From Nanobdellota archaeon (GTDB taxonomy: Archaea > Nanobdellota > Nanobdellia > Pacearchaeales > GW2011-AR1): a DNA stretch of 64,000 nt. The notes under the pieces were generated by a model. It made no database searches. It saw only the letters and a program-made list of their open reading frames with translations, and was not told the DNA's origin. A program made the translations under genes and the position numbers. Every line of letters starts with the position of its first letter. Positions within the stretch are counted from its first letter, which is position 1. The stretch spans positions 32,001 to 96,000 of the forward strand of contig JBBSXO010000006.1 in NCBI GenBank assembly GCA_038045705.1. Reading direction: 5' to 3'. Shown in pieces: positions 33,585-60,601 of this stretch.

Positions 33585-33586
33585 TA

Positions 33587-35820: not shown

Positions 35821-36003
35821 ATGAAATTTTGCATTGTATGCGAAGCTGAAACTAAAGAAAGAGAGTTTTGCGAAAATTGTTTGACTTTCATAAAATGGAA
35901 GTACGAAAATAATTTTGAGGAACAGTTAGAAAGATTTCGTAAGCTGAAAGCCTACCTCGAAGATTGGCGTAACCAATCAACTGAAAAGGAGGTGGAAGAA
36001 TGA
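35821..36003 (+). CDS. Small zinc-finger protein, first gene of the transfer-like operon
   Basis: MKFCIVC...FCENC; ATGA overlap with the pilin gene; ATG 35821 preferred to the track TTG. Confidence 0.65.
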   Translation: MKFCIVCEAETKEREFCENCLTFIKWKYENNFEEQLERFRKLKAYLEDWRNQSTEKEVEE

Positions 36004-36329: not shown

Positions 36330-36331
36330 TT

Positions 36332-37524: not shown

Positions 37525-38282
37525 TGGCTTATGAAATACCTCAACAACTAGAATACAAAGAGAAAATAATGTTTGGGTTAAATTTTAAGCAATTAGCTTA
37601 TCTTTTTATTTTTGCACCAATTCTATTTGTTATTTTTTTTAAGACTGCCTGGCATAATGCAATAAAGATATTTTTTATGTCAATTTTTGGAGGTTTAGCT
37701 ATAGGGTTTATCTTTCTTGATTTAGATAAACATCTTCAAAATTGGTTTTACTGGTATAAATCAAAGAAGTTAGAGTTAGATCATAAATTAGCCTTATTCA
37801 TACCAATAAAAGAAGTAAAAGATAGTTTGGTTATAACTAGGGATAATAGGAAACTAGCAATTATCAAGATTACTCCTATTAATTTCTCAATTAAACATGA
37901 AGAGTCTAAGAATGCAATATCAATAGCATTTCAGAAATTTCTCAATGGTTTAGATTTTCCTATACAGATTATAATGAATACTGAACACCTTGATCTACGA
38001 GATTATTTTGCAGAAGTTGAAAGAAAGATAAAAGACTCCAAACAATTTAGATATTTGTTTGAAGGTTACAAGAGACATCTAGAGTCAATAACTAAAGAAA
38101 AAGATGTGATGAATAGGGTTTTTTATCTAGTTCTTACAGAAAGAACTGATATTAATATACAATTACAGATTTGTCAGACAAAATTATCTAATATTGGTTT
38201 AAAGAGTTTGAGACTAAAAGATAATGAATTAAAAGAATTGCTTAGAAGATTTTTCTTAGCAAGGAGAAATCATGCTAAGTAA
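37524..38282 (+). CDS. PrgI/VirB3-like protein with soluble C-terminal extension
   Basis: AYEIPQQLEYKEKIMFGLNFKQL PrgI-like start, two helices, then PINF...LNGLDFPIQI. Confidence 0.7.
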   Translation: MAYEIPQQLEYKEKIMFGLNFKQLAYLFIFAPILFVIFFKTAWHNAIKIFFMSIFGGLAIGFIFLDLDKHLQNWFYWYKSKKLELDHKLALFIPIKEVKDSLVITRDNRKLAIIKITPINFSIKHEESKNAISIAFQKFLNGLDFPIQIIMNTEHLDLRDYFAEVERKIKDSKQFRYLFEGYKRHLESITKEKDVMNRVFYLVLTERTDINIQLQICQTKLSNIGLKSLRLKDNELKELLRRFFLARRNHAK

Positions 38283-42265: not shown

Positions 42266-42283
42266 ATTTAAAGCCTATTATCT

Positions 42284-42655
42284 TCAAGGTATTGTATAAA
42301 ATCCTCTACCGTCTACATCTAAATCGCCAAAGGGATCAGGGTGGAAAGCTATTGTTCTTGTTTCCATTTCTGTGTTAATATCATCTCTTATTGCTACATC
42401 TAAGTCTGTAATTCGATTGACCGTTCCTCTAAATTGTCTTTCACACTTTCCCGCTTCTAAAATTGCTATGTAATTAGTATACCCATCTTCTGAATATATT
42501 TTATAAGCATAATCAACATCAATTATTCCATTAGCTTGGCATCTTGGGTTTATAGTTATATTAGCGCTTGGTTGTGCTTGAACTGCAATTATTGTCACTC
42601 CTATAAATAATATCATTCCTAAAAAATATAGTATTTGATTTTTCATAATGGACAA
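42284..42655 (-). CDS. Secreted hypothetical protein
   Basis: Signal peptide ending AVQA. Confidence 0.65.
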   Translation of the reverse strand: MSIMKNQILYFLGMILFIGVTIIAVQAQPSANITINPRCQANGIIDVDYAYKIYSEDGYTNYIAILEAGKCERQFRGTVNRITDLDVAIRDDINTEMETRTIAFHPDPFGDLDVDGRGFYTIP

Positions 42656-47300: not shown

Positions 47301-47362
47301 TCCTCAGAAAACAAGATCACTGTAAGAATAATAAAAATAAAGACGACATAATTTATCTTCAT
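44312..47362 (-). CDS. Secreted PHP-type metallohydrolase fused to Cys-rich and repeat domains
   Basis: HQHT, SDH, GEE, NHP, VEIWNG and GGTDEH metal ligands; long Cys-rich region; three C-terminal repeats. Confidence 0.8.
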   Translation of the reverse strand: MKINYVVFIFIILTVILFSEDGLAINFYKGSLHQHTGFSTVGGYDSNPFTNSDNCLPIGLEGHLIGYEVQELADEAANLGLDYLGFSDHSYCIDAGEFGTVRNDCVNARNSTFTCLMGEELSTQDISGDNENLFSCYTGSTGPGEAHIGGYGLSSLISQTPSAVHCPSGPSAQSGVNSIASQGGISILNHPHPSSSTTTFLDFESIYSVSGYDGVEIWNGNFTSDSLDDDADNFNAWYNLLQQDERVYAYGGTDEHGHVSDINYNYVPASTITHSNIQSALAAGTNVVSNNGYVIIEAKKNSQSTWTQMGGEVSANTNDILNMRITYDLDHSCTLRVYKSTIGSNLELTHYGPVNISGSSSPITLPNLALANPGDTYFRAECIGSGGTYRTYTNPIWVSVLSSSCQCSNWVSGSCGGGGCGEGQRLETRTCTPSGCNAQTRCVNDASCSGAGGGNSTCTEPGYEYCTTNSFGNCDVTVAINVYSNVNNISWGQVVDNSDPYTIGNYKVGWKAVDAQDVYYDINPSSCGSGGCGGNPLSGNQGVINVTNAPATAHFEEIIGYDDTSSYWCTTGFDPFNPSYTNNPYIYVLNCYSNSDCASNQFCNKSGSWNTWSCVSDLSNGQSCTSSAQCQSNFCDNDGVGLSDDGWCFSPYNGYFDSQETNYCEFSTTLGISSCDERQTGDDLNLCSGISYYEEECSSVCGYQDVTSVFECGETGCSCAQPLCDGLSSGSNITTCASALTYFADKCSSSASGEDRGDNVCRSSSFATGCTADSQCNGVVAGTGSCSLNCTYNTPPTTPTSLLCNGAACSTNTFYYSMNLNCSGSTDAENDNITYNINAFYDLAFHSIGNHTASQTLNWNFNSIAPEYPVIFSCRSIDVNGSNTYSAYYSPSNSVTLNPMRNDTNKFLIQDSTASNVAWLGDWGNIALKGTCSISSNCVAPNGSLVIGNSTDSSTAYIDTTGNMCLESGTCSDMISSCNPIRDSFLIQNLTGYNMSYIDFNGNLCLTGGLYENVIF

Positions 47363-47808
47363 TTCCTATCCTCATAAATCTTCCAAATTAAGGCTAGCGC
47401 CGAAAAAATTAATAAAGAAATCCCTACAAAATAAGCCATCCTGAGATTAGAACTTGCTTCAAGCAAAAATCTCGAAAAATTGGAATTCAAAGCAACTCCT
47501 ATGGGCCAAAATGAAGTAGCAATTACACTGATTAAAATAAGTTCTTTACTTTCATCTTTAGCTCTTTTTAATAAAATTAAGAGTATCCATGGAAGAATCA
47601 ACCAAAATATCAAATTTACTATTAATACTTCTGGAATAATAATTAAAGATTCACCACCTCTAGTTCCAAAAACTGTTTGAGAAATTAGAGTTGCAATTAA
47701 TCCTGGAATGAATGTCACTAAAATCACTAAATCGCTCTTTGAAAATAAAAATCCTGCTAAAATAAAAATAAATGCACAGCACAAAACCAGATAAATTTTA
47801 TTCTTCAT
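47359..47808 (-). CDS. Membrane protein
   Basis: About four hydrophobic helices; overlaps the next gene. Confidence 0.7.
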   Translation of the reverse strand: MKNKIYLVLCCAFIFILAGFLFSKSDLVILVTFIPGLIATLISQTVFGTRGGESLIIIPEVLIVNLIFWLILPWILLILLKRAKDESKELILISVIATSFWPIGVALNSNFSRFLLEASSNLRMAYFVGISLLIFSALALIWKIYEDRK

Positions 47809-47811
47809 TTA

Positions 47812-49482
47812 TCAAATAACCTCCATTATGTGTTCTGTAGAGATTTGACGTTCCTCTCCCAAGTAGTTGTAATCTAAAGTTATATTTATCCACTCATCAT
47901 TTCCAACAGTGAAATCCCCATAGAATATTTCCTCATATCTTATCCTTATTTTTTCCACATAAACGTTTAGGGTAGGTTCAGTAAGATTAAACTCAAATCC
48001 TTGTTCGATAGATAAATCTTTATTGAAGTAGAGACTTCCGTTTGAAATGTAGATGCTTAAATTTCCTAGCTCAATAACATCATTAAGGTAAATGCTATGG
48101 CTAACAACAATAGTTCTATTATGATCAACATGATTAACAGTGTAACTGGATATATCATGCTCTAAGGACACATTAATACCAACTGCAATTGTTCTATTTT
48201 CACTCCAAGTTCCTTGAGAACTATTGTCGTAAGCCAAGAAAGAGTATGTATAGTTTCCTTCCGAGATGTTAGCTAAAACAAATGTCGTAAAATTAGTTGC
48301 TCCAGTTAAAATTACAGTTTCTTCTAATTGCCAACTACCTCCAGTATTAGAATATAAAGAGATATTGGTCAAAACATAATCATCTGTAACATTCGGAGTC
48401 AAAAATAAATAACCATCCCCATCTAAATAGTTATCTTCTGGAGAGAGAGTAATATATCTTGGAGCAGTGTCTCCTTGTTCTGTAACCGTTAATAGGATCT
48501 CACTATCACCTACACCATTATCAGAGTCATATACATAGAATGTAATATATTCTGAACCGTACCAGTTAGTTTCCGAAGTTAAGGTTACTATTCCAGAGGT
48601 TTCATCTACTTCTGCAGATATGTGGTCTGAAGAACTAGCATTATAAGTTAGCTCATCGCTGTCAGAATCTGAAGAGTACTCACTAAGATTAACTACTTTC
48701 AATGAATCTTCGCCCCAAGTTTGTGAAGACAGTTCAGAAAATACAGGAAGAGGATTTTGAACTGCTATAGTTCTATTTACCGTAGACCATGCAGAGTTAG
48801 GAGAAGAAGCAAAATCATAGCAGATAATATTCCATTTAAATGTAAGATCATTAGGGACATTATTTAACTCAAAAGTCTGTGAAATATTTTTAATAACAAA
48901 ATAATTAGTCTGATTCGCAGCCCAAGTTCCACTCATATTGGTATAAAGACTACAATTTACTATCCACCCATCGTCATCAACACTATAATTTAATTGTAAT
49001 GTTCTATCAGTTGAATTAAATCCATTGGACGGACCTTCAATGTTCACCACAGGGGGAGTGGTGTCATTGAACACGTCAAAAACTCTTGCTTCAGACTGGC
49101 TAATATTTCCATCCGACCAAGAACAATTAACACTCCAACTATATTCATCATTTTGAAGATTATTTAGATAAAAATAATTTGTTGAGGAACTACTAATATT
49201 AATTTCAGTTTGATTTATTATACCATCAAAAATAAAGCTACAATTATCCATAGTATAAGAAGAATTAGTAATTATATAAGAAAATGCTACATTTCCATCA
49301 AATTCTACAGATCCATTTTCAGGAGTTTGAAGTTCAACAATATAACCATAACCACCACTAGTACCTTGAGCACTAACAAAAAAGAAAAACAAAAAGACTA
49401 ATACTAATAAAATAGAAAAAGTGGAAAAAATCATAAAATATTGATTAATTATATTGAACCTTTTAAGATTTCCTTTCACCAT
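47812..49482 (-). CDS. Acidic surface protein with Ig-like/cadherin-like repeats
   Basis: N-terminal anchor; DTTPPVV, DSDSDELTY and repeated NCSLY/W modules; many N-x-S/T sequons. Confidence 0.75.
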   Translation of the reverse strand: MVKGNLKRFNIINQYFMIFSTFSILLVLVFLFFFFVSAQGTSGGYGYIVELQTPENGSVEFDGNVAFSYIITNSSYTMDNCSFIFDGIINQTEINISSSSTNYFYLNNLQNDEYSWSVNCSWSDGNISQSEARVFDVFNDTTPPVVNIEGPSNGFNSTDRTLQLNYSVDDDGWIVNCSLYTNMSGTWAANQTNYFVIKNISQTFELNNVPNDLTFKWNIICYDFASSPNSAWSTVNRTIAVQNPLPVFSELSSQTWGEDSLKVVNLSEYSSDSDSDELTYNASSSDHISAEVDETSGIVTLTSETNWYGSEYITFYVYDSDNGVGDSEILLTVTEQGDTAPRYITLSPEDNYLDGDGYLFLTPNVTDDYVLTNISLYSNTGGSWQLEETVILTGATNFTTFVLANISEGNYTYSFLAYDNSSQGTWSENRTIAVGINVSLEHDISSYTVNHVDHNRTIVVSHSIYLNDVIELGNLSIYISNGSLYFNKDLSIEQGFEFNLTEPTLNVYVEKIRIRYEEIFYGDFTVGNDEWINITLDYNYLGEERQISTEHIMEVI

Positions 49483-49977
49483 TTATTTTATGATTGAGAA
49501 TTCTGCCGAAGAAATAGAATCTGCATCAGCAGTTATACCCTTCAACTCAACTGTAATATCCTCCTTACCATCTTTATCTAGATCTATCTCATAAGTATTT
49601 CCTTCATCTAAAATGAAAGAAAGAGCTATTTGCTCATCGTCAACATAATTGTTTAGACCATCTTCTAAGTCTAAAATTATGAAAGTTGGACCTTCTTTTC
49701 TCACTCCTTTATACTGAAGCCCATACCAATTACCATTAAATTCAAACTTTAACCTTCCAGGCTTCATATTGAAAGAATTGTCCTGTCCCAAAATAATCTC
49801 TGAAACTGGAACGGCTGCACCACCAAACCCGGAATTAGATAATTCAGGCATAACAGCAACAATATCTAGTTCTTCACCTGAAGAGTTTACTGAATTCAGA
49901 AAGATAAATATAACCAAGAAAAAGAGAAGACTGAAAAAAAGTACAAATGACTTAATTTTCATAAAACTCACTAGCAA
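49483..49977 (-). CDS. Membrane-anchored hypothetical protein
   Basis: N-terminal helix and a DLDKDGKED Ca-binding-like motif. Confidence 0.65.
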   Translation of the reverse strand: MLVSFMKIKSFVLFFSLLFFLVIFIFLNSVNSSGEELDIVAVMPELSNSGFGGAAVPVSEIILGQDNSFNMKPGRLKFEFNGNWYGLQYKGVRKEGPTFIILDLEDGLNNYVDDEQIALSFILDEGNTYEIDLDKDGKEDITVELKGITADADSISSAEFSIIK

Positions 49978-50066
49978 AACCGCTTTATATATTTACCTAG
50001 AAATTTTTCTCTTTAGAATTAGAGCATTCTATGAATATATAAAAGATGCCGAATTATTCTAATTAG

Positions 50067-50990
50067 ATGAACTTAAGTAAATATCTCTTAATGCTATTTT
50101 TAGTAAGCATTATTTCAATTCTAGTTCTTACATTAAAGCAATCACCCATCATTCAAGAGTATGCAGATTCACCATTTTGTGGAAATAATATATGCGAAAG
50201 AAATGAAGAAATATACTGCCTTGATTGTAACTTAAGTTGTAAATCTGAATTATGTAACTCAAAAATTAACGTCTTATGTGATAATTGCAGTGTTGAAAGC
50301 GAGTTAATTCAGGAATTGTTTGATCATCAAATTATAATATATAATTGCCTTTCAAATTATTATGGTTATAACCCTTCTAGATTGGTTTACCACACTGTAA
50401 AGAATGCTGATGAAACAGGAGAAGTATGTAATGGGGATGATGGGTGTTATGTTGGAGGAGGAAATTTTGGAGAGAAAGAAGGAATAATCCAAGAACAGAT
50501 ACCTGGATTGGTGAATTTTGGGAACTTCAGGGTAAAAAATAAAGAAGATGTAGGTTTTGAAGTTCATGAATTATCTCACGCATTTACTTATTATGGACTT
50601 GGAAGAATACCTTCATGGTTAAACGAAGGAATTGCCATTTACTCAGAAAGCAAATTAAGTTGCGATAGTGAGATTAGAGAAGATGAAATTATAGAAATCT
50701 ACGAGTTATATAATAATCAAACTATTACAATACCAGCTAATGAATATGAAAGAACAAAAAATAGCCCTCATGTAGTTGGATCAAGATATTTAGGTTATCT
50801 TGAGGATGTATATGGATGTGATAAAGAGTGTGTTTCTAAAATAATTCACTCATTATATTCATATAGACAAAACCATACTAAGTATGACTTAAGAAAGCAA
50901 GTAATAACTAATAAAATAATAAAGGAAAAGTCAGAAGAAGTAATTGGTAGAGATTTAACTAAAATATTTGACATATTGGAAATAAATTGA
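50067..50990 (+). CDS. Secreted gluzincin-like zinc metallopeptidase
   Basis: HELSH followed by WLNEGIA; Cys-rich N-terminal CGNNICE module. Confidence 0.75.
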   Translation: MNLSKYLLMLFLVSIISILVLTLKQSPIIQEYADSPFCGNNICERNEEIYCLDCNLSCKSELCNSKINVLCDNCSVESELIQELFDHQIIIYNCLSNYYGYNPSRLVYHTVKNADETGEVCNGDDGCYVGGGNFGEKEGIIQEQIPGLVNFGNFRVKNKEDVGFEVHELSHAFTYYGLGRIPSWLNEGIAIYSESKLSCDSEIREDEIIEIYELYNNQTITIPANEYERTKNSPHVVGSRYLGYLEDVYGCDKECVSKIIHSLYSYRQNHTKYDLRKQVITNKIIKEKSEEVIGRDLTKIFDILEIN

Positions 50991-51040
50991 TGATTTTGTT
51001 TTTTAGCAAGGTTTATAACTCAAAATAAGCGACCCTTATT

Positions 51041-51487
51041 ATGAAAATTAAAGTATTATTCTATATCTCTTTATTAGTGATAGCTTCTTTATTTTTGATC
51101 CAGAATAGCTCAGCTAGCCCAGTGCCTAACGCTATTATGCCAGATTTAGTATTTACAAATATAACTTATAAGATCTCTTTTATTAATACAACTAATTCTG
51201 TAACCTATTGGGATGTAAGAGTTATAGGGACATTAACAAATAACGGGTCAATCTTCGCTACTTCTTCTACTAGCTCGAGTGGATTATCAAGAGTTGGAAG
51301 CACTTCTGGCTACGGGCAAGCTATTCCAACGCCTTCAATAATGCCTAGGGTAAGCACAAAAGTTAGATGGAATTTTGTAGGATATACTGGGCAATATTCT
51401 ATGTGGTTTCATGCAGATGTTTTTAACAATGTAACTGAATTTGATGAAACTAATAATTTTATTGGCACAATTATAACTCTCCCTTAA
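51041..51487 (+). CDS. CARDB-like secreted protein
   Basis: PDLVF start and DVFNNVTEFDETNN end. Confidence 0.75.
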   Translation: MKIKVLFYISLLVIASLFLIQNSSASPVPNAIMPDLVFTNITYKISFINTTNSVTYWDVRVIGTLTNNGSIFATSSTSSSGLSRVGSTSGYGQAIPTPSIMPRVSTKVRWNFVGYTGQYSMWFHADVFNNVTEFDETNNFIGTIITLP

Positions 51488-52010
51488 TAAATTTTGATGA
51501 ATTCATCATATTTTGTGCAGCTTTCAAGAAAGTTAAATCTCTATCTCTAATAAATTTACCTTCAACTTTAGTAGGCTTATCATTTTCAAAAGTTTCAATA
51601 GCTTCATCTAAAGTCATCCAAACTAACTCAAACTCTTCAATCATTTCTTTCTCAGTAAATTGAGGTTTTCCTTTAGATAAAATCTTTCCAATATAACAAT
51701 AAGATATCTGTTTCATATCAAAACCCCATTTGAAATTTTTATCAGAACGATATTCTACAATCTTACCAACTTCAGATTTTATCTCCATTTTAGCTCCGAC
51801 TTCCTCAAGAGCCTCTCTTAGCAAAGCATTCTCTTTTGTTTCCCCTTCATCTATGCCTCCGCCTGGAAGCTTATGAAAATTTCCGCTTGCAACAAACAAT
51901 ATTGGAACTAAACCATTTTCATCAAAAAGAACAGCTCTTGAAGCCTCACGAAGTTTAATATTAGAATTCTCTTTAAAATCAGGATCTTTAAACTCTTTAA
52001 GAAGTCTCAT
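51471..52010 (-). CDS. NUDIX hydrolase
   Basis: Nudix box GGIDEGETKENALLREALEEVG. Confidence 0.9.
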   Translation of the reverse strand: MRLLKEFKDPDFKENSNIKLREASRAVLFDENGLVPILFVASGNFHKLPGGGIDEGETKENALLREALEEVGAKMEIKSEVGKIVEYRSDKNFKWGFDMKQISYCYIGKILSKGKPQFTEKEMIEEFELVWMTLDEAIETFENDKPTKVEGKFIRDRDLTFLKAAQNMMNSSKFIKGEL

Positions 52011-52810
52011 TTCAAATTTCCATATTTAGATAACAAATTACCTAGCTGTTCTTTTCTTTGACTAAGCCCAGCATATTTTTTCTCCTTAAAATAATGGCAA
52101 TAATAAATATCCTGTAATAACCAGTTTAAGAAGATAAAATCTTGGTATTTTTCATCCCAAAATTGAGTTGAAGATATAGAAGAGTATCCTTTCCTAAACT
52201 GTTTTTGTTCTTTAGGTTTCTTAAACCACTTAAAGAATGCCTTACCAATAGCAAAAAGCTTTGGTCTTTCAGCAATACTATCTATATCTACAAGATAAAC
52301 ATTACCATTTCTTAATCTAAGATTGCTACCATGAAGATCGTTTGCATCTAAAGTAAAAATGGGTTTTGTCTTCTTCAATAAAAACTGATATATTTTTTCT
52401 ACTCTTTCAATTTCTTCTTTAGGCAAGAGTTTAGCCTTTCTTACTTCATTCAAATTCTTCTCAAATCTTCGCGTAACGCTGCCATTAACTTTTATTTTAT
52501 TGATATAAGCACAAATTTTACCAACCCGATAAATTACTGATTTTGACTCTTTCTTAATAAGGTCTCTTCCTTCAATATATTCATAAAGAACATCTTTTCC
52601 AACTCTTCCTAAAAATTTAGGTAAAAAGCCGTACTTTTCAAGTTTATGAGATATTTCTTCGAAATATTTAGCTCTTTTAAGAGTCTTATATTTTCTTAAA
52701 ACATATTTTCTTCCTTCGTAAGTAAGTAAATGAACTTCACCGCTCCAACCCTCTCCACCATCATCAGAAGTTAAAACAGATATTTTACCATTTTTTAATA
52801 TATTTTTCAC
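52007..52810 (-). CDS. APH/choline-kinase-like phosphotransferase
   Basis: GEGWSG loop, YVLRK, DLHGSN and LVDID motifs. Confidence 0.75.
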   Translation of the reverse strand: MKNILKNGKISVLTSDDGGEGWSGEVHLLTYEGRKYVLRKYKTLKRAKYFEEISHKLEKYGFLPKFLGRVGKDVLYEYIEGRDLIKKESKSVIYRVGKICAYINKIKVNGSVTRRFEKNLNEVRKAKLLPKEEIERVEKIYQFLLKKTKPIFTLDANDLHGSNLRLRNGNVYLVDIDSIAERPKLFAIGKAFFKWFKKPKEQKQFRKGYSSISSTQFWDEKYQDFIFLNWLLQDIYYCHYFKEKKYAGLSQRKEQLGNLLSKYGNLK

Positions 52811-53403
52811 TTTAAATCTCCTAAGTGTTCATTATAATGTAATTTACTAATAAATAACTTTTTGTTCTTATCTAACTCTACAACAGTCACAGAAGCGTTA
52901 GGGCTACCTTTCTCAATAATCTCAGAATTATCTTTATTTTTAACCAACAGCATTTTTAACAAAGAAACTTTTGTTCCACCATGAGTCATAATTAAAACTG
53001 TTTTGTCTTTCCATTTTTTACTATTCTCTGTTAAAAATGTCTCTGCCCTTTTATCAACATCTTCAGGAGTTTCTCCGCCAGGAGGAGCTTTGTTAGGATT
53101 ATTCTTCCCCCATTCCTTTAACTCACCAGTAGGTTTACCTTCAAAAATACCCTTACCTCTTTCTCTCAAAAGATGAGAGTAATTAGCTTCCATTTTAATT
53201 ATCTTTAATAATGGAGCAATAGATTCTCTACATCTTCCCAAATCTGAACAATAAACTAAATCTATTTTTTCATTTTTCAAATAATTAGCTAATTTTTCGA
53301 CTTGCTTTAATCCAATCTCACTAAGTTTACCTTGATTTTGACCTTGAGTTATTCCTTCTTTATTTTCAACGGTTTCACCATGTCTTACAATAATTAATCT
53401 CAT
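52807..53403 (-). CDS. Histidine phosphatase family protein
   Basis: RHGET, SDLGR, LRE and THGG motifs. Confidence 0.92.
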   Translation of the reverse strand: MRLIIVRHGETVENKEGITQGQNQGKLSEIGLKQVEKLANYLKNEKIDLVYCSDLGRCRESIAPLLKIIKMEANYSHLLRERGKGIFEGKPTGELKEWGKNNPNKAPPGGETPEDVDKRAETFLTENSKKWKDKTVLIMTHGGTKVSLLKMLLVKNKDNSEIIEKGSPNASVTVVELDKNKKLFISKLHYNEHLGDLK

Positions 53404-54329
53404 TTTTCAGCCTCTAACCTTCTCTCTTTTTCCACGTTTAACATGGCTATATGGTTACCTATTGGAGTTAATGTTCTAAGCATCATAAGAAAATAATGGA
53501 TTATTATAGGATCTTCTTTTTTAATAAGCTCAAGGTTACTTTCAAAGTTTCCTTTTCTTGACTCAAAAAATTTCTGTACATTGTCCTTTTGATCATTAAC
53601 TACCGCATTGTAAAGTTCTTGATAATGATCTCTTACTTCCTTAAGGAGTCTTAATTCAGACTCACTTAATTTTGGCTTCTTTTGAGCATTTAGATGATCA
53701 TAAGAATAATTGATAAGAAGAGAGATTTCAATAATTGCATTAAAAAAGTCGTAAGCATACTTTGAGTTTACTGAATCAAATATTTCTCTTTTGTTTATCA
53801 ATCTCTTTGATAAATTACACAGCCTGCATAAAGTAGTGTGGAGTTCTTTTATCTCATAACTCATTTCAAAATTGCCTTTTTCACCTTCTTCTAACAAATA
53901 GTCTAACTTTGAAAGCAAAATCCACATTATCTTTCTTACAATTTGGCCATACTCTGAATCATCTGTATGTACCATACACTTAAGTCTACATACATTATTA
54001 TCACTCTTTACTAATTCAAGACCAGTTAATAATCTAAGATCTTCTCTGATTTGAGGCAATTGTTTAGGTGAAGTATATTTTATATTGATTTCATCAAATC
54101 CAGAAGTGTATAGGTGGCGGATAATTCTTCCAATATACCATTCACCTCCGTTTTCTAAAGGAATTGTTACTGGCTCAAAAGATTTGTCTTGTATTGATAT
54201 AACAAGCTTTCCACGTGAAGGTTCTACATTAACTAATTGTCCTTGTTTGAGATTATTATTTTTTACCCAGTTAGATGGAAGCGAGACAGTGAGAGTACCT
54301 TCTCCGTGCTTTACAACTTTTCTCTTCAT
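53400..54329 (-). CDS. AbrB-N/PhoU-like archaeal regulator
   Basis: RKVVKHGEGTLTVSLPSNWV AbrB-like N-terminus; LYTSGFDEI; helical C-terminus. Confidence 0.8.
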   Translation of the reverse strand: MKRKVVKHGEGTLTVSLPSNWVKNNNLKQGQLVNVEPSRGKLVISIQDKSFEPVTIPLENGGEWYIGRIIRHLYTSGFDEINIKYTSPKQLPQIREDLRLLTGLELVKSDNNVCRLKCMVHTDDSEYGQIVRKIMWILLSKLDYLLEEGEKGNFEMSYEIKELHTTLCRLCNLSKRLINKREIFDSVNSKYAYDFFNAIIEISLLINYSYDHLNAQKKPKLSESELRLLKEVRDHYQELYNAVVNDQKDNVQKFFESRKGNFESNLELIKKEDPIIIHYFLMMLRTLTPIGNHIAMLNVEKERRLEAEK

Positions 54330-54350
54330 AGTTCGAGAAATATAAGTTCT

Positions 54351-54419
54351 TTATTTAAATTTATGGTTATGTACACATATTTATACAATGTGTGTTTATA
54401 CACACAATAAGTATATAAT
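54351..54419. promoter_or_regulatory. Divergent promoters with operator-like palindrome
   Basis: TGTGTGT-TTAT-ACACACA at 54389-54406, between a minus-strand TTTAAATA and a plus-strand TATATAAT (54412-54419). Confidence 0.6.
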
Positions 54420-54440
54420 AAAACCTCAGATATATGAGTT

Positions 54441-55424
54441 ATGACTCAAACAATAGAGAATGTATTGGGAAGATTCCCTTTACGCGTTTCTATTACAGAT
54501 AATTGTAATCTATCTTGTGTTTTCTGTTCAAATGAAGGTTTAGGAGCAGAACGTAACCAAGTTTCAATGCAACCAGAAGATTTTCGATATTTAGCAACCA
54601 CATTAAGAGCTCATGGACTAAATCATATTTCTCTTTCGGGCGGAGACCCAACTGCTCATCCTGCTGCACGAGAAATGGTTGAAATTGCTAATGAATCAGA
54701 AATTCCTCAAAGATTCTACCATACCAATGGAATACTTCTTGGAAGAGATGGACTAGCAGATGCTCTTGAACAATTTAGTAAAATTGGAGTTTCACTACAT
54801 ACAACTGATTCCGCAAGATATAGCCAAATAACTGGGGGGAGACCAGCACATTATGATAAAGTAATGGCTGGATTAAAATCTCTAGGGGAAAAAGGATTGG
54901 GACAAAAAGTAGAGGTAAAACACGTTACTGTAAAAGGAATGAATGATGACTCTGAATCTTTGAGTGGTACTCTAGATTTATGCGCACAGTACGGTTTCAA
55001 ATTTAAATTTCTAAATTTTGAAGCAATTCATGCTGGACAGGTTGGTTTAGTGCAGAATGCAGAAGTAATTAGACAAAGAGTTAGAGATTTAGGAGCGGTT
55101 CATCTTCCTGACCAAGGAGGAGTTTTCAGAGGACAGGATTCTTACTTACCAATTCAATGGTTTAGTTACAAAGGAACTAAAGGCGTTGTTATAGATGTTG
55201 GTTGCGGAAGACCTGAGGTTTGCAGAAGCTGTCATGATTCTAATGAAATATATGTAACTCCCAAGCTCAGCATAAAGCCTTGCAAAATGAGCAGTCATGA
55301 AATTTCTCTTAAAGAAGCAATTGATCGTAGAGATGAAGGAGCACTTATAAGTTCAATAATGGAATCAAGAGCATTCTTACGCACACAACCAGGATTAGGT
55401 AAAACCTATTGGGAGCAAAGATGA
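54441..55424 (+). CDS. MoaA-like radical SAM enzyme (divergent)
   Basis: LRVSITDNCNLSCVFC, SGGDP, TNG and C-terminal CRSC...KPC cluster ligands; no terminal GG. Confidence 0.85.
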   Translation: MTQTIENVLGRFPLRVSITDNCNLSCVFCSNEGLGAERNQVSMQPEDFRYLATTLRAHGLNHISLSGGDPTAHPAAREMVEIANESEIPQRFYHTNGILLGRDGLADALEQFSKIGVSLHTTDSARYSQITGGRPAHYDKVMAGLKSLGEKGLGQKVEVKHVTVKGMNDDSESLSGTLDLCAQYGFKFKFLNFEAIHAGQVGLVQNAEVIRQRVRDLGAVHLPDQGGVFRGQDSYLPIQWFSYKGTKGVVIDVGCGRPEVCRSCHDSNEIYVTPKLSIKPCKMSSHEISLKEAIDRRDEGALISSIMESRAFLRTQPGLGKTYWEQR

Positions 55425-56098
55425 ATAAAAAATTAGTAATGTTATATACAAAGTTCCCTGAAATTGGAAAATCAAAAACAAGAATAGCAAGAGAAAGCTC
55501 AGAATTATTCGCGTATATTGTAAGTCTTTGCACACTTAAGGATACTATAAACAAAGTGAGCAATTCAAAAAGTTATGATTTTATTGCAGTAGTTAATAGT
55601 AAAGAAGAGTCTCAATTGTTCAGAGAGAAACTTGGAATTAATGTTTATGTTTTAAATGAATCTTTATTACAAAGCGACCAAAGTCAAAGATTTTCATTTC
55701 TATTTTCCAATTTTAAGAAAAGCTATGAAAAAATAATTTTAATCCCAAGTGATGTTCCCTCAATCGCCGAATCTAGCCTAATTAACGCATTTAATATTTT
55801 GGAAAATAATGATTATGTATTTGGCCCAGAATACAATGGAGGAGTATACCTTATCGGAATGAATAAAAATCCAGACAATATTTTTGATAGAGTTAGATGG
55901 AGTACTGAAAATTCTTTTAAAGATTTAGTAAATAATAGTAAAAACAAAAGTTATCTGTTAAAATTAAAGGGTGATCTCAATAAATTACAAGACTTAAATT
56001 TATTTAAAGAAGACATAGAAAAAAGATCCCCATTACTCTATGAGTTTCTTGCTAATAATTTCTACAAAGGGGTCAAAATTAATTATGCTTACAATTGA
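55421..56098 (+). CDS. DUF2064/CofC-like GT-A fold transferase
   Basis: KFPEIGKSKTRI, SDVP, GPEYNGGVYLIG, W-ST and DL..L.DL motifs; ATGA overlap with the radical SAM gene. Confidence 0.8.
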   Translation: MNKKLVMLYTKFPEIGKSKTRIARESSELFAYIVSLCTLKDTINKVSNSKSYDFIAVVNSKEESQLFREKLGINVYVLNESLLQSDQSQRFSFLFSNFKKSYEKIILIPSDVPSIAESSLINAFNILENNDYVFGPEYNGGVYLIGMNKNPDNIFDRVRWSTENSFKDLVNNSKNKSYLLKLKGDLNKLQDLNLFKEDIEKRSPLLYEFLANNFYKGVKINYAYN

Positions 56099-56714
56099 AC
56101 TATTTGGTATTTCAAGAACAGGTAAAACTTCTACTTTGAGAAACCTTGCTTCACATTTCGAAGCAAATGGAGAAAGATGCGAAATTATTGGAAGAGCCCC
56201 AATAGATTTCAAAAGTTGTAGAGATCTTGAAGACTTTCATCAAAAAATGCTATTATACTTAGAACAAAGAATTCCAGAGGCTCAAGAAAGAAAACCACAT
56301 TATCTGTTGATGGACAGAGGACCTTATGATAGGCAAGTTATGCTAGAAGCAGACCATCAAGACGGAAAAGTAGGAGATCAAGTTTATAGAGATGCAACCC
56401 AAAGACTGCTTAGTTTAGAACCAAAAATTGATATTCCTTTAATTTTTCTTGTAGATCCTACAACTTCTCTAGCTAGAATTGGTTCACAAAGAGACGAAGG
56501 CCTAGACTATTCTCATATGTGTGTTGGGCTTAACACGAGAGACAATGTTGCTGAATTAGGTAGATTATTTGATCAGTATTCTGCTTTACAAAGGGCAAAG
56601 AAAGGCATTATAAGCGTTTATACTGGCGGAAGTGCAACAGATACATTACAATCAGCCTTAAGGGTAATAGCATCGACAAAAGTTAAAAACAATGGAGAAC
56701 ATACACAATCATGA
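56085..56714 (+). CDS. P-loop nucleoside monophosphate kinase-like protein
   Basis: IELFGISRTGKTS Walker A and LLMDRG; start at ATG 56085. Confidence 0.75.
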   Translation: MLTIELFGISRTGKTSTLRNLASHFEANGERCEIIGRAPIDFKSCRDLEDFHQKMLLYLEQRIPEAQERKPHYLLMDRGPYDRQVMLEADHQDGKVGDQVYRDATQRLLSLEPKIDIPLIFLVDPTTSLARIGSQRDEGLDYSHMCVGLNTRDNVAELGRLFDQYSALQRAKKGIISVYTGGSATDTLQSALRVIASTKVKNNGEHTQS

Positions 56715-57223
56715 AAGAAATAGAGATTAAACTAAAATACAGCGATGAAAATGCGCTAAGAAAGAAAATAAAAAGTATTGGAAAACACACAGAGACCTAT
56801 GAGATTGTTGATTGTTATTATGGAAGAGATGGCGAAAACATGAAGACTGCTGAAAAATTGCTAAGGATAAGAACAAAGAAAGGAGTATCTGAGCTTACAT
56901 TTAAAGGTAAAAAAGAGACAGAAGGAAATGTCTGGGAAAGAGTTGAGATAAATGTTCCAATTGGGGATTCTGAGAAGATGGAACTTGTTCTAAAAAACCT
57001 TGGACTAAAAAGAATTCTAAAAAATCGAACAATTAGAGAATACTGGAACATTAATGGAACAGAATTAGGAATTATGAAAATTAAAGAACCAGCAGAAGTT
57101 GATTTTGTAGAGATCGAAGGTAAAACTAAAGAAGATGTTGAAAGAGTTACTGGCTTGTTTAAAGGAATTTTAGAGCCTATTGGTAAAGACCATTTCAAAA
57201 AATTAGATGAGGCTAACAAATAA
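56711..57223 (+). CDS. CYTH domain protein (class IV adenylate cyclase/triphosphatase)
   Basis: EIEIK, LRIR, LTFKG, R.E and FVEIE motifs. Confidence 0.9.
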   Translation: MKEIEIKLKYSDENALRKKIKSIGKHTETYEIVDCYYGRDGENMKTAEKLLRIRTKKGVSELTFKGKKETEGNVWERVEINVPIGDSEKMELVLKNLGLKRILKNRTIREYWNINGTELGIMKIKEPAEVDFVEIEGKTKEDVERVTGLFKGILEPIGKDHFKKLDEANK

Positions 57224-57795
57224 TGTTGCCAGAGATATTTATCATAAGGCATCCAGAAACAATCAATAATAAAGAAAAGATCATTGAAGATCCTATGGGA
57301 GGAGATTTATCTGAATATGGTAAATCTCAGATACCTGATGCAGTTAAGAGTTTATTATCTTTAGAAATTTCTAAAGTATACTCTAGCGATTCTGCACGAT
57401 GTAAAGAACTTGCTGAAGCATTTTCTAATGAATCTGAGATAGATATCCATTATGATCCTATGCTTCGCGAAGTCAATAGTGGAGATTGGATCGGCATGAA
57501 AAAAATAGAAGTTAAAAAGCTTATAGCACAGAATAAAAGACCAAGAAATGGAGAAAATTTAGATCAATTAATGCAAAGAGCTAAAGTTGTCCTTAACAAA
57601 TTAATTCAAGAAAAAGGTAGAATATTATTAATCACTCATGGTTGTCTAAGTAAAATGATTATAGGTGCAACAATGAATATGGGTGCTTATGAAGCAGATG
57701 AAAAAGTAAGCATAAAAAATTGTCAGATAATAAAATTGGATTTCAAAAATATAGGGTCAAAACAGATTCCACTTATTCAAAACAGAAAAAATTAG
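57223..57795 (+). CDS. Histidine phosphatase family protein
   Basis: RHPET, SSDSAR, LRE and ITHG motifs. Confidence 0.88.
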   Translation: MLPEIFIIRHPETINNKEKIIEDPMGGDLSEYGKSQIPDAVKSLLSLEISKVYSSDSARCKELAEAFSNESEIDIHYDPMLREVNSGDWIGMKKIEVKKLIAQNKRPRNGENLDQLMQRAKVVLNKLIQEKGRILLITHGCLSKMIIGATMNMGAYEADEKVSIKNCQIIKLDFKNIGSKQIPLIQNRKN

Positions 57796-57818: not shown

Positions 57819-58133
57819 ATGAGGAACACACTACAAAAAGAGAAAAGTAAAGAAAATCTTTTATCTGAGATGCTCTCATATCTCGAACCAAAGGAAACTA
57901 TCCAAATTAATGGGAAACTTTCTTATAAGGAAAGTTTAGGTTCTTGGAATGTAATTCAATTGCAAAAAGAGATTATTGATTTATTTCCTCAACTTAGAGA
58001 GAAAAGAAGTAATTTTGGTTATACTATGTTCTATAATCGCTCGTTTAAGGAATCGAGAAAAATAATTGATGAGCTAGAAAAAAACGGGGTTGTTCCTATT
58101 TTTCTGTTGTTAGGTAAGGTAAAAGAAAGATAG
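57819..58133 (+). CDS. Hypothetical protein
   Basis: 104-aa ORF; no recognised motif. Confidence 0.6.
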   Translation: MRNTLQKEKSKENLLSEMLSYLEPKETIQINGKLSYKESLGSWNVIQLQKEIIDLFPQLREKRSNFGYTMFYNRSFKESRKIIDELEKNGVVPIFLLLGKVKER

Positions 58134-58180: not shown

Positions 58181-59149
58181 ATGAAAAAAGAACCAATCTC
58201 AAAGAGACAGCATTATGTTAATCAAGCTTACTTAAAAAATTTTAGAATAGAAAGTACGGAAGATAGTTTATTTATGTATGATAAAGAGAAAATGTCTATT
58301 GCTAGGGTAAAAACTGCAAATGTAGCCAGCGAGAATTTCTTTTATGATAGGACAGAAGAGCGCATTATAGAGAAGACTTTAGCAGAATTTGAAGGTAAAT
58401 GTAATGTTATCTTAAAAAAGGTCATCGAAAAGGAAGATTTAGACCAATTAATTAGTGAAGAAAAGGAGCTTTTAGCGACGTTTTTAGCAGTTCAATTTTT
58501 AAGATCAAAAGAATTAAGAATTGATTATAAACAGATTGCAGAGGCTGTTTTAGAAAGGGTTGCTGAGAAAATAGTTCCAGATTTTAAGAAAGGAGATATT
58601 AAAGTCGTAGAAGATTCTTTATCTGGACTTCATGTACATACGATTTTTAAAGAATCTGGACATTTTGCAAAATTATTTCTTGATAAATCATGGAAATTAT
58701 GTATCAATAATTCCTCTATTCCTTTTTGGACTTCCGATAATCCTTGTGCAATACATAACGATCTTGAGCCAGAACCATTCAAAAGCAATCTAGGAATTGA
58801 ATGTAAGGGCTTTCAGTTGCATTTTCCATTATCTTCAAGGTTACTCTTAATAATTATTGACAAAAACATTAAGGTAATTGATTTAAGTAATGCAAAAGAA
58901 ATAAAATATCCAAAAAAGAGAAGTTTTTACAGGAATATAGATAAGAAACTAGACGTTCCTTTATTTACTTTAATGCCTCCAAAGGAATTTGTTGGAGGGG
59001 ACAGAGTTACTTTTGAGAATAATTTGCAGGTAATATCTGCGACAAGATTTATCTTTTCTTCAAATGAAGATTTTTCTCTTGCTGACAAATATTTAAAAGA
59101 ACAACCGATACATAGAAATGCAAATAGAGGAAGATTTAAAGTAATGTAA
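58181..59149 (+). CDS. DUF4238 domain protein
   Basis: RQHYVNQAYLKNF, FWTSDNP and FPLS motifs. Confidence 0.85.
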   Translation: MKKEPISKRQHYVNQAYLKNFRIESTEDSLFMYDKEKMSIARVKTANVASENFFYDRTEERIIEKTLAEFEGKCNVILKKVIEKEDLDQLISEEKELLATFLAVQFLRSKELRIDYKQIAEAVLERVAEKIVPDFKKGDIKVVEDSLSGLHVHTIFKESGHFAKLFLDKSWKLCINNSSIPFWTSDNPCAIHNDLEPEPFKSNLGIECKGFQLHFPLSSRLLLIIIDKNIKVIDLSNAKEIKYPKKRSFYRNIDKKLDVPLFTLMPPKEFVGGDRVTFENNLQVISATRFIFSSNEDFSLADKYLKEQPIHRNANRGRFKVM

Positions 59150-59205
59150 TTGACTATCAATTTAATATCTAAAATTTTAAAATCTCCTAATGATTTCGGA
59201 GAATT

Positions 59206-59775
59206 ATGAAAAAAGAATGCGTTGAACATTACAATAAGATTAAGATAAGTAATATCAGCATACTTAGTTCTAACAAAAAGTTAAGCGACTATGAGAGAAA
59301 TTTAAAACTAGAATATGCCCGAGAAGAGCAATACGAGTCTGACTCATTTAATCTTAAACTTGCAGATAGTAGATGTAACTTGGGTGGTTGGCGTCTCTGG
59401 TTTATGTGTCAAGGGTGCGAAAAGAAAGTTGGAACCCTATTCTACAAATATGACCCTCAAAATCTAAGATGTAGAAACTGTTTAAATCTTACTTATGAGG
59501 CAAGACAGAATAAAAGAAAAGAGGCATTTCATCTTATTGGTAATGCAATAAGGCTTAAACAAAAATATGATTTAATAGGAGAAAGGCTGTTAAGGAAAGG
59601 AATACATGCAAAGACTCGCCTCAGACTTTGGTCAGAAAAAACAATATTAGGGGAAGAACTAATAGAAGTTCTAGCCTTACAAAAAGAAGTCTTATCCAAT
59701 AATTCTGTTAAATATGGAAAAAGAATGCAAGAACTAATAGAAAATAAAAAATTAGATTTTACAACAAGACCATAA
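59206..59775 (+). CDS. Zinc-finger protein of mobile elements
   Basis: GGWRLWFMCQGC...CRNCLNLTY. Confidence 0.65.
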   Translation: MKKECVEHYNKIKISNISILSSNKKLSDYERNLKLEYAREEQYESDSFNLKLADSRCNLGGWRLWFMCQGCEKKVGTLFYKYDPQNLRCRNCLNLTYEARQNKRKEAFHLIGNAIRLKQKYDLIGERLLRKGIHAKTRLRLWSEKTILGEELIEVLALQKEVLSNNSVKYGKRMQELIENKKLDFTTRP

Positions 59776-59797
59776 TTACAATTTTCTATTACCTTCT

Positions 59798-60016
59798 TTA
59801 TCTAAAATTATTCTTTCCTTTTACATATTTTATAAGAACTAAGAAAATTCCTAAAATAACAGACACTACTCCTGAAGAAGAGTTGCTTAGTGGAAATGAA
59901 GGATAAAGAGCCTTTGCAATTAATAGAGCCATGTAGATTACCACTGCTGAAACAAAGAAGACTCTAAAAGCTCCTATAATATCCCCTACAACATTATCAG
60001 ACCAGTGTTTAGCCAT
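59798..60016 (-). CDS. Small membrane protein
   Basis: Two hydrophobic helices. Confidence 0.6.
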   Translation of the reverse strand: MAKHWSDNVVGDIIGAFRVFFVSAVVIYMALLIAKALYPSFPLSNSSSGVVSVILGIFLVLIKYVKGKNNFR

Positions 60017-60067
60017 AGAAATTATGATTATCCTAAATATTTAAATTCTTTCAACCTTTATAAAAAT

Positions 60068-60601
60068 ATGGGAAATAGAGAGTATCAAGTATGGGATAAA
60101 AAAGGAGAAGGAGAAGAGTCTTGGATGCAATTTAGAAGATTTGCAGTATCTTATAGAAAGGCTTTTCAAACATGTATTAAAAAAGAAGTTGAAGATGCAT
60201 CAAACGGCTTAATATTTGATGATGAAGATATTTTTCCATCTTTGTTATTATTCAATCATTATGTAGAACTCTCTTTGAAAGCCTTACTTGAAAAATCTGG
60301 AAGCAACTTTAAAAGTCATATTTTAAAAGATTTATTAGAAGAGGTTGAAAAGAACTATCCTGACTTTAAACTCAGCAACTTACCAAGAAAATTAATAACT
60401 GATATTGATTTAATTAACCCAGCTAGACCTTTATTAGACCACGAAGGTTTTAGGTATCCTTTAGATAATAAAAGAAATAAGATCTGGGTTACTGAAAGAA
60501 ATAATCATGCTTTTATTGTTCTTGGTGGAGTTCATACTTCTTCAATAAATCTAATAAATGAGATAGAAGCTTACTTTAAAGATAAGATAATAAAAGCTTA
60601 G
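60068..60601 (+). CDS. HEPN-like domain protein
   Basis: HYVELSLKALL, SH.L..L and FRYP pattern; start placed at ATG 60068. Confidence 0.6.
   Translation: MGNREYQVWDKKGEGEESWMQFRRFAVSYRKAFQTCIKKEVEDASNGLIFDDEDIFPSLLLFNHYVELSLKALLEKSGSNFKSHILKDLLEEVEKNYPDFKLSNLPRKLITDIDLINPARPLLDHEGFRYPLDNKRNKIWVTERNNHAFIVLGGVHTSSINLINEIEAYFKDKIIKA

Follow-up and report, generated by a model that had tools for sequence, protein, structure and literature searches.

Nucleotide-acting radical S-adenosylmethionine (SAM) enzymes include MoaA, which serves a cofactor pathway, and viperin, an immune effector whose conservation extends from bacteria to humans; two other radical SAM enzymes, BlsE and AbmM, likewise act on nucleosides or nucleotides. 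Here we analyse a locus at positions 51471-57795 of a 64,000-nucleotide stretch of DNA from a Nanobdellota archaeon (GenBank assembly GCA_038045705.1, contig JBBSXO010000006.1, positions 32,001 to 96,000 of the forward strand). We refer to this whole stretch as the window, and coordinates without a locus handle are window coordinates. At the locus a radical SAM enzyme that we term rSAM-B is encoded together with a DUF2064 transferase, a P-loop kinase and several phosphohydrolases. Judged by its sequence and predicted structure, rSAM-B is a MoaA-fold enzyme but no true MoaA, and it represents a new, rare family. We hold with moderate confidence that the locus represents, in reduced archaeal form, a rare, transferred cassette that would make a modified nucleotide, probably for use in conflict. 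By analogy, the cassette is comparable in its logic to viperin-kinase pairs and to nucleoside-antibiotic clusters, and stands outside the MoaA and viperin families.

The nine open reading frames of the locus are present exactly as first placed by a model that saw only the DNA (the sequence-only reading), and they form two divergent operons:

51471-52010, minus strand: NUDIX hydrolase (PF00293, 56.8 bits; Nudix box GGGIDEGETKENALLREALEEVG), the last minus-strand gene
52007-52810, minus strand: APH/choline-kinase-like small-molecule kinase of 267 amino acids, so labelled from language-model (Atlas) features and motifs
52807-53403, minus strand: histidine phosphatase 1 (PF00300, 134.2 bits; RHG motif)
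53400-54329, minus strand: AbrB/PhoU-like regulator (PF04014 below cut-off; predicted PhoU-like fold)
54330-54440, no strand: control region between the operons; its core, 54351-54409, is conserved
54441-55424, plus strand: rSAM-B, MoaA-fold radical SAM enzyme (Radical_SAM, 78 bits; CX3CX2C motif)
55421-56098, plus strand: DUF2064 (MobA/CofC-fold) transferase (PF09837, 58 bits)
56085-56714, plus strand: thymidylate/deoxynucleoside-kinase-like P-loop kinase (family profile against the PDB; phrog_761)
56711-57223, plus strand: CYTH (triphosphate tunnel) enzyme (PF01928, 60.8 bits; ExExK motif)
57223-57795, plus strand: histidine phosphatase 2 (PF00300, 104.4 bits; RHG/RHP-type motif)
57819-58133, plus strand: 104-amino-acid basic protein, whose gene accompanies the set in 7 of the 29 loci compared below

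On the minus strand, each pair of successive genes (54329<-53400, 53403<-52807, 52810<-52007, 52010<-51471) shares 4 nucleotides. On the plus strand, the stop codon of the rSAM-B gene overlaps the DUF2064 start codon at 55421 in an ATGA; the most likely kinase start, an ATG at 56085, lies inside the 3' end of the DUF2064 gene, which ends at 56098; the CYTH gene shares 4 nucleotides with the kinase gene; and the phosphatase 2 gene begins on the final base of the CYTH gene (a 1-nucleotide overlap). A single spacer of 111 nucleotides, 54330-54440, separates the two operons. These overlaps and the single spacer bear out the description of the locus as two translationally coupled divergent operons. 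The family labels first given to the proteins fared unevenly: Pfam and NCBIfam models support those for the NUDIX hydrolase, the two histidine phosphatases (His_Phos_1), Radical_SAM, DUF2064/CofC and CYTH; the kinase, APH-like and PhoU/AbrB labels are weaker than first implied.

MoaA (PDB 1tv7, 1tv8, 2fb3) is the top match of rSAM-B in both sequence and fold. The best NCBIfam model is MoaA TIGR02666, with 106.1 bits against a cut-off of 284.05, followed by TIGR02668 (99.7 bits, cut-off 325.25) and NF001199 (92.2 bits, cut-off 231). An AlphaFold model of rSAM-B (predicted local distance difference test, pLDDT, 90.4) has MoaA as its top PDB match, with a template-modelling (TM) score of 0.71 over the full length; the next structural matches are SuiB and then CTP-bound viperin-like enzymes. 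The residues were compared in an alignment of ten cassette enzymes with five MoaAs. Common to both are the N-terminal CX3CX2C motif, formed by the invariant C22, C26 and C29, the three cysteines of the MoaA C-terminal cluster, with which C261, C264 and C281 align, the basic MoaA residues that line up with R15, K160 and K189, and the TNG motif that lines the MoaA nucleotide site. There are also differences. An extra invariant cysteine, Cys255, gives rSAM-B four invariant C-terminal cysteines; after the C-terminal CxxC, rSAM-B reads H-D-S-N-E where the MoaAs read S/N-R-L/I/V-R, that is, the Arg-x-Arg is gone; the arginine that precedes the GGEP motif is present in MoaA and absent from rSAM-B; and the Gly-Gly C-terminal tail is found in 5 of 5 aligned MoaAs and in 0 of 10 cassette enzymes. 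The Gly-Gly tail is important in MoaA, and Arg17, Arg266 and Arg268 of MoaA bind the guanine base. PDB entry 2fb2 lists Arg17/266/268 in its title. The Mob_synth_C domain (PF06463), carried by all nine MoaA-like comparison hits, was not found in rSAM-B at E 0.01 or better.

The phylogeny and the gene content of the genome agree with the residue comparison. In a maximum-likelihood tree of 56 sequences (a quick tree from a short search under LG+G4, with one long-branch row flagged), rSAM-B falls in a separate clade (Shimodaira-Hasegawa-like approximate likelihood ratio test, SH-aLRT, 98) beside a clade of paralogous radical SAM enzymes (SH-aLRT 100), and these two clades are set apart from the MoaA group by a branch 1.19 changes per column long (SH-aLRT 99). 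MoaC, MoaE and MoeA (MoeA_N) were not found anywhere in the window's genome, which is 91.5% complete; run as a control, identical searches gave matches in 11 of 14 genomes. The sub-cut-off scores, the separate clade, and the missing Arg-x-Arg and Gly-Gly tail confirm that the radical SAM enzyme does not cluster with true MoaA, and the genome-wide searches for MoaC, MoaE and MoeA extend the observation, made at first for the window, that no moaC or other molybdenum-cofactor (Moco) gene accompanies it.

Viperins were the second point of comparison raised by the sequence-only reading, and a viperin identity is not borne out: rSAM-B scores 37.5 bits with viperin model NF038283, for which the cut-off is 180. 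PADLOC models for prokaryotic viperins (pVips) match it at ~47 bits, in the N-terminal half only, and the PADLOC model 'Viperins associated with kinases' gives a weak match of 47.5 bits. The likeness to pVip-kinase pairs is one of arrangement: an enzyme of the same broad radical SAM group lies beside a nucleotide kinase on accessory DNA, with a nucleoside triphosphate as its plausible substrate. Unlike those pairs, the cassette enzyme is always coupled to DUF2064, is accompanied by CYTH and NUDIX enzymes and, in fuller versions of the cassette, by a second radical SAM enzyme. Viperins, moreover, are not known to have the MoaA-type C-terminal cluster domain that rSAM-B carries. In the available part of a viperin survey (10.1101/2023.09.13.557418), MoaA appears only as an outgroup or control, and Nudix, CYTH, DPANN and Patescibacteria go unmentioned. 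A profile search with the rSAM-B family also finds BlsE and PDB 8wm2 (titled AbmM), and both are among the fold matches; they differ in that their scores lie under those of MoaA and in that no further genes of those antibiotic pathways are present. Since the relatives by fold (MoaA, viperin, BlsE and the AbmM-titled entry) act on nucleotides or nucleosides, a nucleotide substrate is indicated for rSAM-B as well. The substrate is probably a nucleoside triphosphate, and the base pocket and the cluster environment probably differ from those of MoaA.

The gene set recurs with the homologues of rSAM-B. Family loci (numbered with L; genomes with G) came from a one-genome-per-species search (26 loci) and from metagenome contigs (15 loci), and their open reading frames were called, clustered and mapped; L042, an unrelated match of 24% identity, was dropped. 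All counts below refer to 29 non-duplicate loci, window included, each with at least 3 kb downstream of rSAM-B. The 13 loci excluded were duplicates (L047, L054) or too short (L017, L020, L030, L031, L041, L044, L051, L053, L055-L057). DUF2064 follows rSAM-B in 29 of 29 loci; 26 loci encode a thymidylate/deoxynucleoside-type kinase, one form of it in 16 and another, non-identical form in 10; CYTH is present in 25; and a NUDIX domain is present in 22, of which 18, counting a split gene in L035, carry it fused to the C-terminus of DUF2064 and 4 carry it as a free protein. Pfam confirms the fusion in three loci. A paralogous second radical SAM enzyme of ~395 amino acids (rSAM-A) lies directly upstream of rSAM-B in 18 loci, a Gre-factor-like protein is encoded in 14 (12 of one cluster, with other Gre C-terminal-domain proteins in L045 and L050), and a histidine phosphatase follows CYTH in 7. 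A metallophosphoesterase often replaces the missing NUDIX (L022 and L023; also L020, L025 and L029), which makes the hydrolases replaceable parts and rSAM-B with DUF2064 the fixed pair. Because the neighbourhood is kept across two domains of life, and because DUF2064 and NUDIX are fused in most versions, the comparison supports the view that the genes form one functional unit.

Within this family the window holds a reduced version, whose subclade has lost rSAM-A, the DUF2064-NUDIX fusion and the Gre-like gene. Close relatives include L016 (enzyme 96% identical to the window's rSAM-B) and L018 (71%). L026, from a genome of the window's own family (G310), retains all three of the lost components, and the Gre-like protein was not found in the window's genome with the one query used. 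Gre factors carry acidic residues at the tip of their coiled coil; in the cassette's Gre-like family an alignment that includes nine loci of the candidate phyla radiation (CPR) type shows an invariant W-H-D at that tip, together with an SPLG motif. A bacterial-type Gre factor is unexpected in archaea, and four archaeal-titled loci nevertheless encode one:

L019, 3101-3577: Gre-like gene
L021, 13389-13865: Gre-like gene
L025, 6935-7465: Gre-like gene
L026, 6774-7271: Gre-like gene

Other additions to the set are more local. Three loci (L027 9603-10022, L050 13514-13915 and L052 13524-13931) have, after CYTH, a conserved protein of ~135 amino acids without a Pfam match, whose DGLHR motif seems to us reminiscent of ParB/sulfiredoxin-type domains. 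Two loci (L035 13396-14148 and L040 13293-14051) have, in the kinase position after the Gre-like gene, a protein of 251-253 amino acids with no Pfam or NCBIfam match and no P-loop. Just upstream of the cassette in the Falkowbacteria-titled L036 (5035-8825) lie genes for a NUDIX protein, DUF5672, HD_4, DHH/DHHA2 and a second NUDIX protein, a series of nucleotide phosphohydrolases.

The partner enzymes of the core are, by family, nucleotide enzymes. The fold of DUF2064 is that of nucleotidyl transferases such as CofC and MobA. The window's protein passes the PF09837 cut-off (58 bits; cut-off 25.8), matches CofC more weakly (25.8 bits), finds PDB 3cgx at E 4e-13, and lies below the cut-off of NCBIfam TIGR04282 (97.4 bits; cut-off 134); on these scores it is a member of DUF2064, though no TIGR04282 equivalog. 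Two described systems invite comparison here. TIGR04282 is a DUF2064/CofC-like transferase partnered with an ArsS-type radical SAM enzyme (NCBIfam 'arsenosugar biosynthesis'), and a DUF2064-radical SAM partnership may thus be, by analogy, a wider theme; the sets differ in that rSAM-B scores 37.6 bits with the ArsS model (cut-off 300) and in that no arsenic genes were seen in the set. Nothing on the transferase was found in the accessible part of the arsenosugar literature. NadM-Nudix proteins resemble the cassette's fusion in joining a nucleotidyltransferase-fold domain to NUDIX, and the NUDIX part of the L026 fusion weakly matches their models, but the transferase domain of the cassette is DUF2064 and the match is 26.5 bits against a cut-off of 409.

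The kinase had been labelled an NMP (nucleoside monophosphate) kinase-like P-loop protein. Its own sequence has no Pfam match above cut-off (AAA_28, 21.2 bits against 27), and a single-sequence search of the PDB gave nothing useful. The profile of its family (14 members) points to the thymidylate/deoxynucleoside kinase type: it matches thymidylate kinases (3hjn at E 3.5e-7; kinase matches range from E 3.5e-7 to 1e-3) and, along their whole length, deoxyadenosine/deoxycytidine and deoxyguanosine kinases. The kinase also matches phrog_761 of PHROGs (thymidylate kinase) at E 3.5e-6, and the family alignment shows a Walker A motif, GxSRxGKT, and a DRGxxDR motif. The second form of the kinase, from CPR loci, matches Pfam Thymidylate_kin at 38.8 bits (cut-off 27). 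G+C content is 0.37-0.39 in the rSAM-B gene and 0.35-0.37 in the kinase gene, falls to 0.26-0.29 in the DUF2064 gene between them, and is ~0.31 in the window as a whole.

NUDIX enzymes cleave nucleoside diphosphate linkages, and CYTH enzymes act on triphosphates. The CYTH protein passes PF01928 (60.8 bits; cut-off 23.2), has the ExExK motif near the N-terminus of its translation, and lies narrowly under the cut-off of TIGR00318 (CyaB, class IV adenylate cyclase; 56.1 bits against 57.95); by these matches it may be a cyclase or a triphosphatase. Free NUDIX orthologues directly follow the regulator in L016, L018 and L043, and a profile built from the DUF2064-fused NUDIX domains finds the free one of the window weakly, at E 3e-5, a level at which we claim no orthology. 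Orthologues of histidine phosphatase 2 are present in L016, L018, L019 and L043, and its position is occupied by another type of histidine phosphatase in L022 and L024.

Two of the nine genes do not belong to the set. In L016 and L018 the regulator is followed directly by NUDIX, with phosphatase 1 and the APH-like kinase absent, and in a contig of wastewater DNA (run X9) position 52006 is joined straight to 53400, leaving out 1393 bases. Phosphatase 1 and the APH-like kinase, lacking in the closest relatives and skipped by this contig, are therefore an insert of the window's lineage. We conclude that the pair at 52007-53403 is a lineage-specific two-gene insert and that seven of the nine genes are the conserved set; the proposed nine-gene pathway must be shortened by this 1393-base insert. 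The APH-like protein had no hidden Markov model (HMM) match in Pfam, NCBIfam, PADLOC or PHROGs, and none in a single-sequence search of the PDB. An Atlas feature search links it to choline/ethanolamine kinase and APH clusters (0.98-0.99, 215 common features), which we treat as a lead only, and by eye it has a DLHxxN-type loop followed by an ID motif; its label is thus carried by language-model features and motifs, without HMM support. The regulator/NUDIX slot appears to be a small variable site inside the operon. An isochorismatase-family gene occupies this slot in L044 (6838-7452).

The regulator appears to consist of an N-terminus of the AbrB/SpoVT type, then a small alpha/beta domain and, at the C-terminal end, six helices that form a PhoU-like domain. 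It scores 19.9 bits with PF04014, under the cut-off of 24.7; Pfam PhoU was not found in it at E 0.05 or better, and a profile search of the PDB was empty. The ten best PDB matches to its AlphaFold model (pLDDT 81) are all PhoU or PhoU-like (E 1.4e-3 to 8.5e-3; TM up to 0.65 on the target), which suggests that the C-terminal part is PhoU-like. The regulator is present in 11 of the 29 loci, all archaeal-type, and is divergent to rSAM-B in 9 and convergent after CYTH in 2. The core of the spacer, 54351-54409, is identical to L018 at 58 of 59 positions, against 72% for the flanking rSAM-B gene DNA. Read by eye, it has two TTTATA boxes between short inverted repeats, ACACAT(9 nt)ATGTGT and TGTGTG-TTTATA-CACACA, and a repeat search found an 18-nucleotide imperfect inverted repeat at 54378-54417. 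The core fits a repressor site over divergent archaeal promoters and may be regarded as a putative operator. A promoter/terminator scan of the stretch was uninformative: it returned 34 sites against 29.2 +/- 4.8 expected, with a consensus that is bacterial, not archaeal. Contigs from RNA libraries (three metatranscriptome runs of one study) map to both operons at 90-95% identity, with presence in an RNA library not to be equated with transcription, and uncovered parts of the stretch carrying no weight either way.

The set is rare, and its carriers belong to two domains. The titles of 26 records name Woese-, Pace- and Nanoarchaeota (13), Saccharibacteria, Buchananbacteria, Falkowbacteria and Patescibacteria (7), 'Gammaproteobacteria' (5) and 'Methanosarcinales' (1). 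The titles of the last six look unreliable: the 'Methanosarcinales' record (L037; G461) is the same as G200, which is placed in the window's own phylum, and two 'Gammaproteobacteria'-titled genomes (L028 and L040; G460 and G459) are 0.8 and 1.1 Mb. The carriers are organisms with genomes of ~0.7-1.4 Mb; the window's genome is 0.84 Mb. Of 16 further genomes of the genus, 4 encode an orthologue of rSAM-B; a sample of 400 others from the phylum yields 3, and one of 400 from the phylum to which the CPR carrier G458 belongs yields 0. Among 1.84 billion cluster representatives, 9 reach E 1e-30 with rSAM-B. The archaeal rSAM-B sequences nest within the diversity of the others with a support of 86, in a tree whose root inside the family is not fixed, and a transfer of the cassette from CPR bacteria to DPANN archaea is possible. 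On this distribution the set looks accessory, horizontally transferred, and crossed between archaea and bacteria. The sequence-only reading had called the pathway undescribed, and we too found no published description of the gene set in literature searches on combinations of its families and on its MoaA-like enzyme in Patescibacteria and DPANN archaea.

In the window the set is carried on a mobile element, as had been proposed; an integrase at a tRNA-Asp gene and a VirB4-like ATPase substantiate it. The left part of the integrated element comprises:

33512-40581, plus strand: left part of the integrated element (tRNA-Asp, integrase, MT-A70, PrgI-like, VirB4/TraG-like)
33512-33583: tRNA-Asp
33667-34839: tyrosine integrase, beside tRNA-Asp
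38272-40581: VirB4/TraG-like ATPase

An MT-A70 methylase and a PrgI-like protein are also encoded there. In both L016 and L055 the VirB4-like gene adjoins the NUDIX gene, from which it follows that elements of this type carry the cassette as cargo and that the window genome has acquired the surface-protein genes at 40697-51487 as an additional insertion. Exact repeats of at least 14 nucleotides of the tRNA-Asp gene were not found on the host contig, so that no attachment-site repeat marks the right border of the element. Directly after the 104-amino-acid gene, 58181-60601 encodes one protein with a DUF4238 domain (136 bits) and one that matches HEPN weakly (20.8 bits; cut-off 22), consistent with variable cargo, and the next cargo bay, past the right end of the window, holds a type I restriction-modification system and a HEPN gene.

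The relatives of rSAM-B, the type of the kinase, the fold of DUF2064, and NUDIX and CYTH are all nucleotide-linked, and for this reason we read the cassette as a nucleotide-modifying pathway. Its substrate, order of steps, product and biological role are matters that we infer. First, the kinase would raise a nucleoside or deoxynucleoside phosphate towards the triphosphate. Second, rSAM-B would bind the nucleoside triphosphate through the basic residues that it has in common with MoaA, abstract a ribose hydrogen and rearrange the nucleotide; the base would be bound otherwise than in MoaA, because the Arg-x-Arg is gone and a fourth cysteine stands at the auxiliary cluster. Third, DUF2064 would couple or transfer the product. 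Fourth, CYTH, NUDIX and the histidine phosphatase would trim the phosphate chain, such that the product is released or is kept from the cell's own pools. The AbrB/PhoU-like protein would act as a repressor that controls both operons through the conserved operator, which overlaps the two TATA-like boxes. Since the set is rare and patchy, has apparently crossed between domains, and is element cargo beside defence-type genes, its most likely use is in conflict, as the source of an antiviral or antagonistic nucleotide analogue. If the family proves to be a third nucleotide-acting branch of radical SAM enzymes with fixed partners, it could reveal new nucleotide chemistry. The crossing between archaea and bacteria, in symbionts that shed metabolism, suggests that the cassette pays its way in episymbiosis. 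With only five to seven genes it forms a compact, self-contained unit, and identification of its product would give DUF2064 a first function.

Several points weigh against this proposal. No family member has a known product, substrate or phenotype, and the chemistry of DUF2064 is unassigned, hence the step given to it is a guess. A simple scheme of the viperin kind does not account for the pair of radical SAM enzymes in the fuller versions. No protein of the set convincingly reaches a PADLOC defence model, and no relative was found in viral contigs, the phage records reaching only 24-26% identity, which is MoaA-level. The loci are mutual relatives, with L016 and L043 at 95-96% identity to the window, and the counts of co-occurrence thus make them look more independent than they are. 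The CPR loci checked have ordinary neighbours (FtsE/FtsX, a UvrD-like helicase, a short-chain dehydrogenase), and the defence-island argument is therefore limited to the archaeal elements. Finally, the Gre-like factor and the PhoU-like regulator would suit a regulatory nucleotide equally well.

The Gre-like factor also admits a bolder form of the proposal, to which we give a low probability: that RNA polymerase is the target of a new molecule, derived from a nucleotide and made by a two-radical-SAM pathway common to CPR and DPANN organisms, and that a new class of nucleotide-based immunity or control has moved between the two domains of ultra-small symbionts. According to this idea, the bacterial Gre-like factor, acting in the secondary channel with its W-H-D tip, would either bring the molecule to its target or free the polymerase of its own cell from it. 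A role in self-protection, in which the factor lets polymerase remove a chain-ending analogue, is speculation.

The chief alternative to a conflict cassette, which we judge unlikely, is that the product is a regulatory nucleotide (an alarmone or second messenger), with the Gre-like protein as its effector at RNA polymerase, the hydrolases as its turnover and the PhoU-like regulator as its link to phosphate. This would suit the recurrence of the Gre-like gene with its invariant tip in 14 of the 29 loci, the HD_4 and DHH/DHHA2 proteins and two NUDIX genes that L036 adds upstream, the fold of the regulator, and the CYTH score just under the class IV adenylate cyclase cut-off. The Gre-like gene is, however, absent from the window and its closest relatives, and core signalling would be unexpected at 3 of 400 genomes or as cargo of a mobile element. 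We know of no radical SAM enzyme that makes an alarmone, and no fit of a bacterial Gre factor to archaeal RNA polymerase is known to us, yet four archaeal loci keep the gene.

Slightly less likely again is an altered nucleotide or deoxynucleotide pool that provides a modified precursor for the DNA or RNA of the element or the cell, in the manner of phage hypermodification: a pyrophosphatase takes away the normal deoxynucleoside triphosphate, the monophosphate is modified, and a dedicated deoxynucleoside monophosphate kinase recharges it. Both kinase forms do fall in the thymidylate/deoxynucleoside kinase group, NUDIX and CYTH could be pyrophosphatases of nucleoside or deoxynucleoside triphosphates, and the element encodes an MT-A70 DNA methylase. 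But no DNA polymerase, glycosylase or transglycosylase lies beside the set, no relatives were found in viral contigs or phage records, DUF2064 and the second radical SAM enzyme are left without a role, and to our knowledge no cellular genome replaces a base at the level of the pool.

A regulon for scavenging phosphate and nucleotides under the PhoU-like regulator, with no new product, is improbable. The number of phosphohydrolases (NUDIX, two histidine phosphatases and CYTH here; metallophosphoesterase, HD and DHH elsewhere), the fold of the regulator and the small size of the 0.84-Mb genome speak for it; against it, the invariant pair is a radical SAM enzyme with a transferase, the hydrolases are the replaceable members, the kinase works in the opposite direction, and basic salvage would not be so rare or patchy. 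That the radical SAM enzymes are maturases of ribosomally synthesized and post-translationally modified peptides, with the nucleotide enzymes as bystanders, is highly improbable: SuiB and other peptide maturases do occur among the structural and profile matches, but those matches span the generic core and rank under MoaA, no conserved short precursor gene lies alongside, and the unvarying partners are of nucleotide type, one of them fused to NUDIX. That rSAM-B is a true MoaA in a remnant of Moco synthesis is scarcely credible, the best NCBIfam and structural matches and the three aligned auxiliary-cluster cysteines notwithstanding, given a score far below the cut-off of 284, the absence of Mob_synth_C, Arg-x-Arg, pre-GGEP arginine and Gly-Gly tail, the fourth cysteine, the separate clade, and a genome in which MoaC, MoaE and MoeA were not found.

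The 104-amino-acid protein encoded after phosphatase 2 had no family match in Pfam or PADLOC down to a threshold of E 0.01, except for PADLOC PDC-M05B at E 0.0047, and none at 0.001 in PHROGs; outside the window its gene is co-located with the set in L016, L018, L023, L026, L032 and L043. A second copy of the gene lies beyond the window, on the minus strand at L058 9650-9964. It is followed there by nucleoside 2-deoxyribosyltransferase-like, B12-binding radical SAM and winged-helix genes and is flanked on the opposite side by the type I restriction-modification system with its HEPN gene; this region (L058 9650-12856) seems to be another radical SAM module of the nucleoside type, placed in the adjacent bay.

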